A stretch of 64,000 nucleotides of DNA from a phage. Location of the stretch: the sequence record PZ242158.1, one strand, 5' to 3'. The notes beneath the pieces are model-generated. The model ran no database searches. It was not told the DNA's origin and saw nothing but the letters and a program-made list of their open reading frames with translations. The stretch's first letter is position 1; each line of letters begins with the position of its first letter. A program made the position numbers and the translations under genes. This document shows, one piece after another, positions 8,436 through 61,304 of this stretch.

Positions 8436-11400
8436 ATGCTTCCAATCCCTTTGCTAAAACTTGGTCGTCATTTCCTCGATAAGAGGGGTGGAATTAAGGA
8501 ACTTGCTGTTCTGTCATACCCAATAGACAACAGTGATGGTACAAGCAACACAGTATCCTATGTAAATAGCTTAGCTATACTTTTTGATGATGGTCAGCTT
8601 AATATTACTGGCTATAATAGGTTCGGAGAGTGTCGGACTGGAGATCTTGATACAATAAACTATCCTAATGAGGCAGCTTGGAACGTAGACCATGTTTGGA
8701 GAGCTGACCGTGCATTTGTAATCCGCACATTCGATAATAAATTTTTCTATATTGGTTGCACAGCTGGTCTTATCGGATCGGAGGCAGCAGGTGGAAACGA
8801 TGTTTGTGTCAGAGAGTGGACACCTTTGCCGGAACAGATCGTAACAGGGTTGCATTTGGACACCCATCCTGAGAGACTTGTTGAAGTAATGGGTGGCGTA
8901 AACAATACAGTGTGGGTAATTGCTGCACCAGAGGATGATGGTATGCTTCACCTGTACGGCTCTGGCAATAATACTTACGGCTCTCTTCATGTTGACAAAA
9001 GTCAACACGCTACTCCAGTTAAGATCGGTGAAACATCTGAAAGTCCAGAGACAGGTCCTTGGAAAAATCCAAGAATTAATTGTGAAGTTCATGACAACTC
9101 GGTTATTTTTGGTGGTCCTAACGGATTCTGGATTGCAGGTTACGATTTCTTAAGAAATAACAGCAAAAACACACTAGTTTATCCAGCCGAGCATGTGACT
9201 CTTGACCAGTTTAAAGGCATCCCGGTGGGCGAGACATGGAAAGGATTCATGTGTGGACCTAATGGTGCAATTATAGCCACAGAAAGGATGCACAAACCTG
9301 ATGACCAACAGCTTGTTAATGTGTTTTATGGTCAGGATGTTTGGGGTGACGACACGTGGAGAAGCCTTAACATCACCTATACCCATGAAGTAATTATGGC
9401 TCGCGGGTACGGGACTAGTGGAATTTTCTTCAATAATGGTACAAAACAGTACCGTGGTTTCTCCAGAAACCTGTGTAACGATATTGGTGCTCAATCTGCT
9501 AATAATAGTCCTAGGGCCAATTTTATTCATTACAGAGCGCTGGCAACAGCTAAGTTTGTTGAACAGACAGAGCCAGTAAGCTGGACAGAAAGCGTTTATT
9601 TCCAGGGTATCCACAGAGAAGGTTTCTTAGGGACCTTTACTGTTGTTAATGGCAAACTTTGGTGGTCAGGCATCCCAAGGGGAAGTTTTGCAGGCTCTAA
9701 TAACCTGTTTGGCGGCAGACTTAATAGTCAGGGGTTCACAGAGGTTCCTGAGAATTGGTATAAAAATGTCCCAGTAGACAGTTGGGGCGTTGATGATATT
9801 TTCGACGTTAATGGTGTTAGTAGTGTTAGCAATATCTACATTGGTGACACGGTCAAGATGAAATTGAAGCCTCAGCCAGAGGGGGCTACGTTCATTATTG
9901 ACAAGATTGAGTTGGTAAATGCTGCAGGTACGGTTGTTACAGATGCAAATTACCAATTCTCCACCAACTGGAACCACGGTGGGGCCAACGAAGTTGTTGT
10001 TACCCAGTATAACAGAAATGTTAACAGACGTGGCCTGTACTCTGTAAAAATAACCTATCATGACAAGCATGGCACAGGCAGAACCCATACGACAAGAACT
10101 TTGAACTGGAACACCATAGTTCCTGCGTATCCGTCCAACGGCAAGTGGCATACTGTCGGTAGAAACAAACAGTTCCATGTCAACGATACTGTATACTTCG
10201 GGCTTAACGCAGCTCAACCTGTTGTAGAAGGCGATACATCGTATATGGTACGACTCCATAGAATGGATGCCGGGTCTGTAACCTACGATGTGACTCAAGA
10301 GATCTACGATCAGAGACGTACCACGTATGACAATGTTGTGAAAACACAAGCCTTGTGGGAGTTCAACCCTAACGGCAGAGGCGGTAAAATGTTGCAGGTC
10401 AACGAGCAAAACGGAACATCGTTGACTGTCCATGAACATCCAGATCCTTGGCCTGATCCTGGAAAACCTAACTCTGGGGCTCGTACACTGAAAATTGTCA
10501 GCCATGATGCAGGATATTTCGGAATACGCTGGGAAGCTACAGTAAGATATGTCGACGGGACAACAAACAACATAGGGATTACACTTGGCGGCACTAGTGA
10601 AGATAACTCGCTGAAAATTGCCTACACGCCCAGAGGTATCTCTATTGATAATATGGATGTTGTTCGCAATGGTTACGGCGATGTGAATGTCAAAGTTACT
10701 CTTGGCGAACATCTTGGTGGGGAAAGGATCATCATGTATGCCTTTGATCATGATCCGCGCACCAATGGGACTTATGCAAATCAGGCATGGAGTTACCTGA
10801 TAAATGCACCTGAGCCGAATACTAAAGAGTTCTACTATGGTATGAAGCGAGATGTGTGCAAGAAAACAGGAACACATGACTGGATTGCTATCTGCGTTAA
10901 AGATGAGCGCACAGCTTGGGATGAGCCTGTTAACAGATGGTTCATAGGTATTCCTACCAGAAGTGATAAGTATGTCGCAGAATATATTGTATGCATGGGC
11001 GGTACCAACCTGAACATGTGTTGGAACGAAGATGTAAACAAATACTCTGATTATGACTATATGAGGGATTACTCTTGCAATCTGTGGTTTAACCAAACTA
11101 CAGGTTACCCTCCGCGTCAGGCAAGGGTAAATCCTGCAATCTTTACAGATACTCAGGTTTTCTTGACAAAACAGGCAAACGAGGTTCAGACCTTCAAGAA
11201 TAACTATGACCCTAACAAGTGGTTCTATAATTGTTACGGGGCATACTTTTGGGGGCCTGCTGAACTGCCTGACAGCGGTTCTTGCTTCGAGGCTGCAACC
11301 TACGGCAGCGACTATATCATGGGACAGGTCAAGAAGTACAAGATGATCCCAGGGCCTGAAACTTTAGGTAACGCTGTTGACCCATACATAAATTTCGCAG

Positions 11401-46804: not shown

Positions 46805-47130
46805 CAGAGATCATCATTTCAACTGCAGGGTATGTGTTCCTGACAATCATTGCACTGACTATTTTGGTTACAGTGTATGGGTTTGTTATCCTTCCTATCC
46901 TTGAGACATTTAGTTTGTGTCGGTGTTGGAGAAAAGCTTACGGGCCACAACCGTGGAAGGACTGGCCTCACCTGGTGCGCTTAGCGTTCTCTTATGCTTA
47001 CGATCACTCTAGCAGTGCATGCATAACCGGATACCACGCCCACAATTGGAGCTGGGAAGGGTTGAGGAAGTGGAATGTTACAAAGACTATACCTCTCCGC
47101 ATGTATAAACCTAAAAACAAAGATAGCTGA
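46801..47130 (+). CDS. membrane protein
   Basis: N-terminal hydrophobic stretch IIISTAGYVFLTIIALTILVTVYGFVILPIL. Confidence 0.4.
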   Translation: MTEIIISTAGYVFLTIIALTILVTVYGFVILPILETFSLCRCWRKAYGPQPWKDWPHLVRLAFSYAYDHSSSACITGYHAHNWSWEGLRKWNVTKTIPLRMYKPKNKDS

Positions 47131-47441
47131 TACTTGAAAATTTCTGGCATATCAAGTATAAGGGGGATTTCTAAAATGGATTTCCTCCTTTTTGATATTT
47201 CACCAGGCCAGATATTTTAAAATTCTTAGAAAATCAGAAAACGGATAGAAAACTAAAATGGATTTTTCAGGGTAGACACGATGAGCTGAGCCACTCATCC
47301 TATCGTTTGCGTCATATTCCGGGCTACCATTCCAGATTTTCCGCGTATGCTCACACCCTTCTACCAGAACTTTCCCACTCGCCCTTGGCCTTTTATGGCA
47401 ATAATCCAGCCACTATCTTGAAGTTGCGGTACAGCTCTCCA

Positions 47442-47529
47442 AGTACTCGATCTGTTTTTCGTTTCAAAGATTGAATTTTCTGAAAATTTTTCTCGATAAA
47501 TTTCTCAGTACTCGATCTGTTTTTCGTTT
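47442..47529. repeat. 23-bp iteron pair in an AT-rich region (candidate replication origin or protein-binding array)
   Basis: AGTACTCGATCTGTTTTTCGTTT at 47442 and 47507, a degenerate third copy near 47560; nearby (C)TAAAATGGATTT x3. Confidence 0.5.
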
Positions 47530-47732
47530 TCTGAATCGGATTTTCTGGAAATCGTTCCAGCTCTCGACCTGAAATTTTTGGGGACGAAATCGATTTTTCG
47601 TTTTCAGAAATGGATTTTTAAAATTTCTATATGGGAATATTTTATGGGATACTGTTTTATAGGAAATTGTTACGGAGGGTAATTAGCATGCTAATTAAAT
47701 TTATTAAATGCGAGGAGTTCTCATTTAGAATT

Positions 47733-47751
47733 TTGAATGATAATCATTCTC
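47733..47751. promoter_or_regulatory. Fur-box-like palindromic operator, site 1
   Basis: ttGAATGATAATCATTCTC matches the Fur consensus GATAATGATAATCATTATC at 15 of 19 positions. Confidence 0.4.
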
Positions 47752-47868
47752 GTTTGCAGAATAACGGGCAGGCCCGGTGATTGTCTCCCGGCCCCTGTTG
47801 CCCCGGCTTGTTATTATAGTATCACACAGGACAAAGAAAGCAAGGATTTTTTGCATAAATTTTTAAAT

Positions 47869-47887
47869 GATAATGATAACCGTTCTC
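47869..47887. promoter_or_regulatory. Fur-box-like operator, site 2
   Basis: GATAATGATAACCGTTCTC matches the Fur consensus at 16 of 19 positions; followed, like site 1, by ..gcag..ccccggtgRttgtctccc. Confidence 0.4.
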
Positions 47888-48406
47888 ATTTTATGCAGCG
47901 CCCATCCCCGGTGGTTGTCTCCCCCGTCACCGGTGCCTGCCGTCCTTTCGATAGGCATATTGTGCCACCTGGCGGGGCCGCTGTCAACACTTCTTCAAAA
48001 ATTTTTTCTAACATAATGCACCAACCGCTGCAACCTGGCGGGGCCAGCCTGGCAGGACCTGACTGACCAGGTAGGAGAGAGTGAAAACTTGCAAACCTGG
48101 TAGGCCTATGCTACAGGGCAGGTAACAATTGAAGAGGAGGTACAAAAATGAAAAGTAATATAATCCCCTGGAAAATGTAGCGATCAACGCCGCTGAAGTT
48201 ATCACCCTGGTTGAAAAGGCTATGGCGGGAGCGTTGGAACATAAAGAAGAGTACGAAAAATGATGGTTAACCTGGCAGGGGCGGCGGCTGGAGAATTCTT
48301 CCCAAAAAATAATTCTAACTAATGGTTGACAGCTCGGAGAGTTCTGTTATTCTTATCCTCGCAAGGTGAACAACACCACACTAATTAACAGAGAGGATAA
48401 AAAATC

Positions 48407-48604
48407 ATGAACGCCTACGGAATTAAAGTACGTCGCAACACTCACCAGGCCGTCACCGATCAAATGGTTTGCCAGGTGGACGTAACCATCAACAACGGGC
48501 AAGGCCTTTATAAATTCCGTCGCGGTCAGAGCTATACCCGGCAACAGCTTAATCGTTGCGCCCTGACAAAAGGCCAGATCAACCACTGGTTTAATAAAAA
48601 ATAA
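48407..48604 (+). CDS. hypothetical small basic protein
   Basis: 65-aa ORF, SD GAGAGGA. Confidence 0.4.
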   Translation: MNAYGIKVRRNTHQAVTDQMVCQVDVTINNGQGLYKFRRGQSYTRQQLNRCALTKGQINHWFNKK

Positions 48605-59282: not shown

Positions 59283-59716
59283 TCCCCTCTTTGTCAAGTG
59301 CTGCATGAAAAAATTTACAAGCTGGTATGGTAGCATTTTTGCGGCCTTGTTTACATTCAGGAGTGTATGTATAATCCTTGTTGTGTGGGCGTTTATACGT
59401 CTGGACGGTCAGAAGTCTGCAGGTTAATATCTAATCTATTGGCTGCTAACTATATCCCACACAAATGATAAGAAATATAATTGTTATATGCGTAAACTGT
59501 AACTCATGTTATCAATCCCTGTATGTATCGCCAGTGGTGCGCATAATGGGTATTATGTTAAATTGCCCGTAATGATAACAGTTCTCACAATGATAGGTAT
59601 TCTCATTCATCCACACAAAATAGGTTGCAAATGTTGTGCCACTGTGTGAACGGCCTGGCCTATTAATTTCTCTCACTGCCTCGATATTTGAGAATTGTTA
59701 TAAGAATGAGAAGTAT
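59283..59716. repeat. 434-bp perfect direct repeat, copy 1
   Basis: Identical by eye to 59843..60276 over the full 434 bp; contains a promoter-like TTGTTT, 17 nt, TATAAT. Confidence 0.8.
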
Positions 59717-59842
59717 CCATGTTTATATTACATCTACTTGGTTCAGAACCAAAATGCGCGAAAGCGTTTCACGATAACTAGCGACCACGGTCTGTTCCCT
59801 GGCGGCCATACGGCTTCTACTGAACGCAGCAGAGGGCGATAA

Positions 59843-60276
59843 TCCCCTCTTTGTCAAGTGCTGCATGAAAAAATTTACAAGCTGGTATGGTAGCATTTTT
59901 GCGGCCTTGTTTACATTCAGGAGTGTATGTATAATCCTTGTTGTGTGGGCGTTTATACGTCTGGACGGTCAGAAGTCTGCAGGTTAATATCTAATCTATT
60001 GGCTGCTAACTATATCCCACACAAATGATAAGAAATATAATTGTTATATGCGTAAACTGTAACTCATGTTATCAATCCCTGTATGTATCGCCAGTGGTGC
60101 GCATAATGGGTATTATGTTAAATTGCCCGTAATGATAACAGTTCTCACAATGATAGGTATTCTCATTCATCCACACAAAATAGGTTGCAAATGTTGTGCC
60201 ACTGTGTGAACGGCCTGGCCTATTAATTTCTCTCACTGCCTCGATATTTGAGAATTGTTATAAGAATGAGAAGTAT
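59843..60276. repeat. 434-bp perfect direct repeat, copy 2
   Basis: Offset exactly 560 bp from copy 1, separated by a unique 126-bp spacer (59717..59842). Confidence 0.8.
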
Positions 60277-61304
60277 TCCCATTCCGTCCGCCTGGCAGCG
60301 CTCCTGTAGGTCCTGCAAGGACTCTAGCTTTCAGCTAGACCCTTCGGGCCTCCCTACAGGTCAGGTCAAAATCGTGGTAGAATTGGGCCTATTCAGATAT
60401 TTCTGGCTGACTCTTCAGGTCTGTGTGGGAAAAGCCAACCTCTCCGGCGGGGCAGGGGGAGGTCAATTAAAAAATTTACGTGGTGTATGAAGCGCTCTTC
60501 AGGTAAGGCAGGTATTATGGGATGAAACCCTCTTCAGGCAATGATATTTGTGGGTGTGATATTTGCTGGAAAGCCAGATATGACGGGACTCCCGGCGGGG
60601 CAGGGGTAGTACAGACAGGGAAAATATGAGAATGTAGTTGGGGAAATTGATCAGACAGGTAGAGTATGGAATATGTTACAAGTATGTTAAATATGGAGGT
60701 TGAATATCTGTAGGATTTGTGTGTAAAATCAAAGACTTAAGGGGTGTTGTGATATTTTCTATAAATAATTCAAGTTTAATAGGTGATATTTGTCTCTATC
60801 CGCTTTGTGTGGTAAACAGATTCAGATGAGATTGGTTTACAAGTGTATACATAATATACAAATTAAAGATACAAGAAACCCCCCATCCCCCTTCGGCTAC
60901 CATTCACCTTTTCCTCTGACTGGTACTTAAACACTTATTCAGACTCTTCAGGTTATCACCCATATATCATATGGCAGTGACTGGTGTCCTCCGGCCCCTC
61001 TTTCGTCACCCGTCCGCTTCGCCATGCTAATGCCATAGCCAATGGTTCGGTTGTTCACCCTGTTCACTCAGGTGTATCTCCATACCCCTTCAAACCGAAG
61101 AGAACAGAAAACCCGAATTACTCGGTAAAAGAAAAGAGAAGAACTTAATTTTATCAGGATAGGCAAGAATGTCAAGGCATGACTGCTCACTAAACAAGCA
61201 AACAGTCATGTGTGGGAGGTAAGTGATTGTGGTGGTGGGAAATTTAGTTGAAAGATGTGTTATAGGTGCGCTTCCAGCACTTTAGCCGGGCAGCTAATTG
61301 TGTG

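Follow-up and report, generated by a model that had tools for sequence, protein, structure and literature searches.

The DNA analysed here, referred to throughout as the window, is a stretch of 64,000 nucleotides (sequence record PZ242158.1) from a Vequintavirus, an rV5-like lytic coliphage with a genome of approximately 137 kb. Within a gene-free gap of the window lie two palindromes, here termed box 1 and box 2, that resemble operators of the ferric-uptake regulator Fur, an iron regulator and one of the best-understood regulators of bacteria. A search with the 1.2 kb surrounding these boxes matched 122 phage records at 80-99% identity, none reaching 99%, and almost all of these were Vequintavirus members, rV5-like myoviruses whose genomes measure approximately 135-140 kb. 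The annotated relatives MaxTheCat, FFH2 and rV5 place the gap within a long plus-strand array of small genes, downstream of the replication genes. At its left edge in the window the preceding gene stops at 47130; on its right side a Shine-Dalgarno (SD) sequence and an ATG codon at 48136/48149 come next, belonging to a small gene that is frameshifted in the window, and the first intact gene starts at 48407. A preliminary description of this DNA had stated that no open reading frame (ORF) with an SD sequence follows the boxes for about 500 bp, which is roughly right. No tRNA and no Rfam family was found in the window, none of the small ORFs on either strand of the gap was convincing, and a counterpart of the leftward gene of Seunavirus and Mydovirus was not found in the window's gap.

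Sequence and frame of the boxes

The preliminary description had singled out TTGAATGATAATCATTCTC (47733-47751) and GATAATGATAACCGTTCTC (47869-47887) as matches to the classical Fur consensus. Both strings are present, and they agree with that consensus at 15 and 16 of 19 positions, respectively. The second is the only match in the window with three or fewer mismatches, and at least one such match arose in 4 of 100 shuffled sequences. When four mismatches are allowed, three sites are found in the 64 kb against an expectation of 0.23 +/- 0.48, and two such sites inside 200 bp occurred in none of 300 resamples. The observation was confirmed, and it lies far beyond what chance would give.

The alignment of seven related phages of other genera shows that the natural frame of the palindrome lies 3 nt to the right of the one originally quoted. 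In this frame the element is a 19-bp palindrome, AATGAKAAT-N-ATTMTCATT, for which the seven phages yield the consensus AATGAGAAT-C-ATTCTCATT, and the frame is the same as that of the 19-bp palindromic enterobacterial Fur motif AATGATAATnATTATCATT. Box 1 differs from this motif at two positions and box 2 at three, and the promoter-proximal box of most other genera differs at one. Both boxes are 9-1-9 palindromes in which eight of nine positions pair, and a weaker site, starting 6 bp upstream, overlaps each of them (47730-47748 for box 1; 47866-47884, scoring 15.2 bits, for box 2). Overlapping sites at a 6-bp offset are typical of Fur clusters (Chen et al. 2007, PMC2189734), and the phage boxes show this arrangement of an inverted repeat with 6-bp-offset overlapping sites. 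A third copy, box 0, lies to the left of box 1; its right half is intact and its left half is lost, and its equivalent in MaxTheCat scores 10.0 bits.

Correspondence of the boxes to Fur operators

A palindromic matrix was built exclusively from the best site in each of eight Fur-regulated promoters of E. coli K-12 (fepA-fes, fepD-entS, fepB-entC, fhuA, ryhB, cirA, fecI and fiu). Scanned with this matrix, box 1 scores 23.6 bits and box 2 scores 22.0 bits, compared with 17.2-22.9 bits for the eight training sites, and box 1 ranks first and box 2 second in the 64-kb window, as they do again in the complete genome of MaxTheCat (135 kb). The maximum in resampled sequence was 13.4 +/- 2.0 bits for the window and 14.1 +/- 1.6 bits for the genome. 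The K-12 sites are no better than the phage boxes, since the best sites of the eight promoters carry two to four mismatches to the palindrome. The best matches to the Fur consensus in the ryhB promoter (AATAATAATCATTCTCATT) and in the fhuA promoter (TATAATAATCATTCTCGTT) are each identical to box 1 at 17 of 19 positions, and both carry the ATTCTC half-site. Chen et al. (2007, PMC2189734) obtained gel shifts with Fur for predicted sites in both promoters, which may correspond to the present 19-mers.

The palindrome also marks iron genes in bacteria. In a scan of one genome per species, its perfect form, AATGAGAATNATTCTCATT, was found in at least 120 bacterial genomes of many phyla, mostly in intergenic positions. 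We collected, among the matches listed, 150 ORFs that start within 350 bp of the palindrome and are directed away from it, and compared them with Pfam; the families found included TonB-receptor Plug domains (11), Fe3+-type binding proteins (9), FUR itself (7), ZnuA/SitA (5), FeoB (4), FeoA (4), ECF sigma factors (4) and FTR1 (3). The matches to K-12 sites and the iron-uptake neighbors in bacteria therefore indicate that the GAGAAT variant of the palindrome is a genuine operator of Fur regulons. The proposal that the phage sites are Fur-box-like operators is strongly supported at the level of the motif, where it holds in every test run. We infer from these matches that host Fur would occupy the boxes and that this occupancy would respond to iron. 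A phage-encoded Fur homologue was not detected by tblastn (E>1), and the annotated 'transcriptional regulator' is an HTH_36/DUF6945 protein.

A predicted bidirectional promoter at box 1

Box 1 is embedded in sequence that reads as a pair of divergent, overlapping promoters. The predicted rightward promoter consists of TTGAAT, a 17-nt spacer (47740-47756) and CAGAAT; its -35 hexamer is kept in six of the seven other phages aligned. The predicted leftward promoter consists of GAGACA, an 18-nt spacer and TATTCT, so placed that the two -10 elements share one region and are offset by a single base. The predicted starts, 47769 on the plus strand and 47751 on the minus strand, are 18 bp apart, and on each strand the -11A is paired with the -7T of the opposite strand. 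From this predicted geometry, box 1 would fill the spacer of the rightward promoter and cover the start of the leftward one, from about -3 to +17. Spacer and start site are classical positions for a repressor. In the commonest type of bacterial bidirectional promoter, -7T and -11A are likewise reciprocally paired and the starts are 18 bp apart (Warman et al. 2021, via PMC10268837); the phage module differs in that both of its -35 elements are imperfect and its starts are predicted only.

The preliminary description had also noted that each box is followed by a similar GC-rich segment. This segment is no conserved RNA, and by its sequence it best fits the spacer and -35 element of the leftward promoter: the distance of TTGTCTC is fixed in most genera, and five nucleotides in the middle of the spacer are free (GGCCC, CCCCC, GGTTC, GGGGT and others). 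Linked substitutions within the segment are not compensatory.

A strong leftward sigma-70 promoter of early type is predicted to the right of box 2, at 47987-47959. It faces box 2, which would lie approximately 60-85 nt downstream of its predicted start, and then box 1. This promoter is invariant in six Vequintavirus genomes, leftward promoters are found at the same position in other genera, and its sequence fits the TGTTGAC early-promoter consensus described for Certrevirus (PMC7344957). GC skew is negative at 47200-47500 and at 47800-48100, which agrees with the gap being transcribed leftward. Control of the downstream early array by iron, one of the options raised earlier, looks unlikely because this leftward promoter intervenes and because the genes examined at the start of the array (48326, 48608) each have a TTGACA promoter of their own.

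Conservation and duplication of the box 1 element

A sensitive search with 47640-47990 recovered 251 phage records. Outside Vequintavirus, just 60-160 nt or so around box 1 are kept, at 72-86% identity, such that box 1 and its flanks are the sole part of the approximately 1-kb gap common to distant genera. The segment is shared by Seunavirus (GAP31), Mydovirus (Mydo and Klebsiella phages), Certrevirus (CB7, CR8), a Serratia phage, a Salmonella phage and Phapecoctavirus (phAPEC8), a genus of another subfamily. In every such genus the element sits in a gene-free gap of approximately 0.8-1.2 kb within a co-directional gene array. The core conserved in the multi-genus alignment is the proximal box with its flanks, TTGAATGAnAATCATTCTCATTTGCAGAAT...GGCA-n5-GGTGwTTGTCTC. 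Box 1 is conserved in the seven phages of other genera, and within six Vequintavirus genomes box 1 is invariant and 47696-47780 is almost invariant. The proximal box of the other genera is identical to the ryhB box at 18 of 19 positions. These genera possess two to four boxes whose starts, in five of the genera, are exactly 29 bp apart, the distance that also separates box 0 from box 1.

Genera besides Vequintavirus contain, in addition, a near-invariant GC-rich block of about 110 nt (CTACCGGCGATCCACCTTCC...GTTAGCCCCGCCTTTTCGCCGTGGGGTGGCG) just downstream of a strong leftward promoter facing the Fur boxes. The block, which is absent from the window and too invariant elsewhere for a covariation test, may be a leftward non-coding RNA.

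The suggestion that the unit is duplicated was borne out. The region is a true tandem repeat with a period of 134-136 bp, specific to Vequintavirus, in which 47723-47755 corresponds to 47859-47891 and CCCGGTGATTGTCTCCC (47773-47789) to CCCGGTGGTTGTCTCCC (47907-47923). The second unit is less complete than the first: its -10 position reads TATGCA/TGCATA, unusable on either strand. Furthermore, the viable isolate AlexBoehm (MZ501048.1) has a clean 134-bp deletion, with CCCGGTGA joined to TTGTCTCCCCC, and is without box 2. Because of this deletion, and because the GGTGwTTGTCTC segment is single in other genera, we regard unit 2 as a genus-specific and dispensable duplicate that carries a strong double Fur site. 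The deletion arose between two copies of CCGGTG(A/G)TTGTCTCC. MaxTheCat, with two units, and AlexBoehm, with one, form a natural pair in the BASEL collection.

Similar boxes elsewhere in the genome and in other viruses

Besides boxes 1 and 2, sites clearly above background occur only in the non-coding region where the plus- and minus-strand gene arrays converge (59.2-61.4 kb in the window; approximately 2.5 kb long in MaxTheCat). This second locus has five sites in the window, at 59571, 59589, 60131, 60149 and 60265, scoring 14.6-17.4 bits; the MaxTheCat equivalents are at 91464 and 91482. The convergence region is longer in the window because of a 560-bp duplication. A 437-bp direct repeat with a period of 560 bp (59284-59720 = 59844-60280), single in MaxTheCat (91088-91637), contains in each copy a perfect TTTACA-17-TATAAT promoter together with Fur-like boxes. 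The cumulative GC skew of MaxTheCat peaks at 92.1 kb, its equivalent of this region.

Beyond these genera, the pattern AATGANAATNATTCTCATT was found in at least 120 IMG/VR viral contigs with GC contents from 0.21 to 0.58, and 53 of those among the matches listed have a perfect palindrome. Complete scans with controls of the same composition returned 2 contigs for the mirror repeat and 7 for the direct repeat. Among the matches listed, boxes per locus are more numerous in viruses than in bacteria (319 vs 163, in 120 loci each), and the spacing of boxes in viral loci peaks at 6, 29 and 35 bp. In unrelated viral contigs the palindrome often lies in arrays or directly downstream of consensus sigma-70 promoters; in one example, TTGACA-17-GATAAAAT is followed by a box 9 nt on. 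Across the 120 viral loci listed, boxes are enriched from -20 to +20 of predicted promoters, a comparison confounded by the resemblance of the half-sites to -10 hexamers.

Four of the array-bearing contigs among the matches listed are T5-like. T5 itself (NC_005859.1) has boxes at 9552, 9656 and 9691 (span 9552-9715) that score 19.1, 24.3 and 19.9 bits, respectively, with the E. coli matrix, and its segment 9440-9720 contains half-boxes every 29-35 bp, adjoined by a perfect LexA box, TACTGTATAAATATACAGTA, and by DnaA boxes. This part of T5, the injection stop signal or Repeat Region 3, resembles the gap of the window in being a conserved untranslated region of at least 1 kb that is dense in repeats and palindromes and possesses Fur-type boxes. 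It differs in lying in the terminal repeat and in having DnaA boxes and a perfect LexA box, neither of which was found in the non-coding regions of the window, and the two regions show no sequence homology besides the box. A preprint dissecting the T5 region treats its DnaA boxes and never mentions Fur (10.1101/866236). Our literature search found no paper joining Fur boxes with Vequintavirus, Phapecoctavirus or Tequintavirus.

Table 1. Features of the box region and of the second locus (window coordinates)
Feature	Position	Strand	Remarks
AT-rich block	47433..47618		left of the boxes; 47-nt repeat in three copies at spacings of 65 and 74 bp, with AAATGGATTT motifs; repeat families D1-D3
Box 0, decayed copy AATGCGAGGAGTTCTCATT	47707..47725		differs from the family palindrome at 4 positions; precedes box 1 by exactly 29 bp
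Predicted -35 TTGAAT, rightward promoter	47734..47739	+	read from the sequence
Box 1, Fur-type palindrome AATGATAATCATTCTCGTT	47736..47754		23.6 bits; top of the window
Predicted shared -10 region	47757..47763		plus strand CAGAAT 47757-47762; minus strand TATTCT 47763-47758; offset by one base
GC-rich segment of unit 1 CCCGGTGATTGTCTCCC	47773..47789	-	TGTCTC 47782-47787 = GAGACA, predicted -35
One repeat period, 134 bp	47781..47914		exactly missing from AlexBoehm when six genomes of the genus are aligned
Box 2, Fur-type palindrome AATGATAACCGTTCTCATT	47872..47890		22.0 bits; second in the window
GC-rich segment of unit 2 CCCGGTGGTTGTCTCCC	47907..47923		duplicate of 47773-47789; repeat family D7, 94% identity
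Predicted strong leftward early-type sigma-70 promoter	47959..47987	-	TGTTGACA, 17 nt, CACAAT; upstream A/T tract; promoter scan 10/12 with TG
Second locus, two Fur-like boxes 18 bp apart	59571..59607		59571, 17.4 bits; 59589, 15.8 bits
Duplicated second-locus boxes	60131..60283		60131 and 60149, plus 60265 AATGAGAAGTATTCCCATT (14.6 bits); second copy of the 437-bp repeat

Discussion

On balance, we think it probable, from the motif, its conservation and the promoter geometry, that the boxes serve host Fur as operators and belong to a conserved and probably bidirectional promoter module of the gene-free region. When iron is plentiful, Fur-Fe2+ dimers would sit on box 1, together with its overlapping site and box 0, and on box 2. 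Fur bound in this way would keep the bidirectional promoter silent and might also hinder leftward transcription from entering the AT-rich repeats, box 2 providing an extra double Fur site in the path of the 47987-47959 promoter. Upon iron limitation, Fur would leave and the gene-free region would be transcribed. Several observations weigh against this proposal. Nothing obviously useful lies downstream in either direction, where neither a gene nor a structured RNA nor a terminator was found, and box 2 can be lost, as AlexBoehm demonstrates. The promoters themselves are imperfect: both of those predicted at box 1 fall below the threshold of a generic promoter scan, the key base of the -10 element deviates in Mydo (CTGAAT) and CB7 (CGGAAT), and Seunavirus and Mydovirus have a weak leftward -35. 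Finally, among the matches listed, 29-bp arrays occur in 10 viral loci and in a single bacterial one, out of 120 loci each, and the boxes of T5 lie inside the annotated injection stop signal. The mostly viral occurrence of these arrays and the T5 context hint at a use besides ordinary promoter repression.

These last points form the core of the main rival explanation, which we consider rather unlikely, namely that Fur binds the boxes as a DNA-level device and not as an iron-sensing repressor. Fur dimers phased at 29 bp could form a nucleoprotein block that pauses DNA entry or blocks transcription; alternatively, the boxes could mark or protect a cis region such as an origin, or soak up Fur, in which case iron uptake and nucleotide reduction of the host would be derepressed. 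Besides the viral bias of the 29-bp spacing, the exactness of this phasing in five genera, T5-like phages and other viral contigs speaks for such a device, as does the position of the T5 boxes, with scores of up to 24.3 bits, beside LexA and DnaA boxes. Like the injection stop signal, moreover, the gap is a conserved, repeat-rich, untranslated region amid variable neighbor genes, and the second cluster of boxes is also situated in a large non-coding region. In the window, however, only boxes 1 and 2 are strong, box 0 being decayed and box 2 dispensable. With regard to an origin, the gap has AT-rich 47-nt repeats and a leftward promoter; DnaA boxes are absent from it, as they and LexA boxes are from all non-coding regions of the window, and GC skew tracks gene orientation only, with no origin signal. 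Fur is an abundant protein, and a few sites per genome would make a poor sponge.

Two further explanations are less likely than either the operator or the DNA-level device. The palindrome might be bound by another protein, a phage early protein or a different host factor, its likeness to a Fur box being convergent or irrelevant. The family's preference for GAGAAT/ATTCTC over the classical E. coli GATAAT/ATTATC, the largely phage-specific 29-bp arrays, and the many small early proteins of the phage that have no known function, along with at least one helix-turn-helix protein, would all be accommodated by this explanation. It is nevertheless improbable: the exact palindrome recurs in mutually unrelated viral contigs of widely differing GC content, which favors a conserved host factor, and its bacterial copies mark genes of iron uptake as well as fur. 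In addition, ryhB and fhuA have the ATTCTC half-site in the best Fur matches of their promoters, and in most genera a single mismatch separates the promoter-proximal box from the classical Fur palindrome. More improbable still is the idea, put forward in the preliminary description, that each unit is the gene of a short Fur-repressed regulatory RNA, the two being arranged in tandem. PrrF1 and PrrF2 are tandem Fur-regulated small RNAs of this kind. The likeness to them lies in the duplication, with a strong Fur-type box at the start of each unit, and is increased by a plausible rightward promoter in unit 1, whose spacer is occupied by the box, and by the near-identity of the proximal box of other genera to that of ryhB. 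Unlike PrrF-type loci, the phage units showed no intrinsic terminator after either box on the plus strand up to 48700, and they have no conserved structure: fold z-scores ranged from -1.3 to +1.3, the same as for shuffled sequences, and the RNAalifold consensus across genera amounts to -2.9 kcal/mol and four pairs. Rfam, RyhB and PrrF included, gave no match at the gathering score over the whole window, nor even at E<=10 when 47000-48500 and four related loci were searched. Only about the first 25 nt downstream of the box are conserved between genera, and unit 2 has no -10 element and is deleted in AlexBoehm. A RyhB-like RNA was also considered on account of a 12-nt string, TTGTCTCGCGAT, common to the -10/start region of ryhB and the conserved segment of Salmonella phage R7; this sharing was taken as probable chance, since it has no Rfam support and its position relative to the box differs.

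To return to host Fur operators, the closest parallels are those of ryhB and fhuA in E. coli, which have nearly the same 19-mer and weaker overlapping sites 6 bp off; in ryhB the site overlaps the core promoter, as it is predicted to do in the phage. The phage site differs in that it resides on lytic phage DNA, in a gene-free and tandemly duplicated setting with nothing iron-related downstream, and in that sister phage genera have 29-bp-phased arrays. To our knowledge, Fur boxes on phage DNA are known only upstream of prophage cargo genes. One of these is stx1, whose Fur box is part of temperate-phage cargo. Another is sitABCD, carried with its Fur box as cargo by lambdoid phages (PMC6969025). 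Such boxes are likewise operators for host Fur on phage DNA, but they control an accessory prophage gene within the Fur regulon of the host, whereas the boxes described here belong to a core non-coding region of a virulent phage and have no cargo gene.

Fur operators are thus of a known kind, and it is their conserved, often phased presence in core non-coding regions of virulent phages that appears to be undescribed. The recurrence of the sequence in related genera, T5-like phages and unrelated contigs suggests that lytic phages read or exploit host Fur. We propose, tentatively, that phased arrays of host Fur boxes may be a recurrent cis-element of virulent phages, serving either iron sensing or a structural block by Fur early in infection; it would extend over core non-coding DNA of rV5-like and phAPEC8-like phages, the injection-stop region of the T5-like ones and many uncultivated viruses. 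If a virulent phage keeps Fur operators of top score in its conserved control region, the iron status of the host, or Fur itself, would feed into the lytic program, which would bear on the performance of phages where iron is scarce, as in serum, the gut and infection sites, and hence on phage therapy. For T5, whose injection stop signal contains palindromes long without an assigned function, Fur would be a concrete candidate protein.

Additional features of the gap

The AT-rich block to the left of the boxes is nearly invariant across the six Vequintavirus genomes, and the adjoining 47260-47440 is highly variable. The segment 47433-47660 also contains two GATC sites and may be a DNA element that acts in cis. 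Interpretation of the CCTGGCGGGGCC repeats as sigma-54 elements was rejected by eye, the -12 GC being absent or the spacing one off. To the right of the boxes, four to five copies of AACCTGGCGGGGCC-like repeats at 47966-48285 constitute the densest cluster of CCWGG (Dcm) sites in the window, with 8 sites in approximately 300 bp compared with a mean of 0.83 per 400 bp; a Dcm-like methyltransferase is encoded by the phage family.

The frameshifted gene at 48149-48322 is a homologue of bas57_0100 and FFH2 ORF178 (58-60 aa), broken across three frames by two 1-nt indels in homopolymers. The homologues in rV5 and AlexBoehm are frameshifted too, and the gene is either decaying or subject to a recurrent sequencing error. 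Lastly, 16 records titled 'Campylobacter phage', with C. jejuni given as the host, are 92-93% identical to the whole coliphage locus, which suggests that they are mislabelled or contaminant rV5-like genomes in a public collection.

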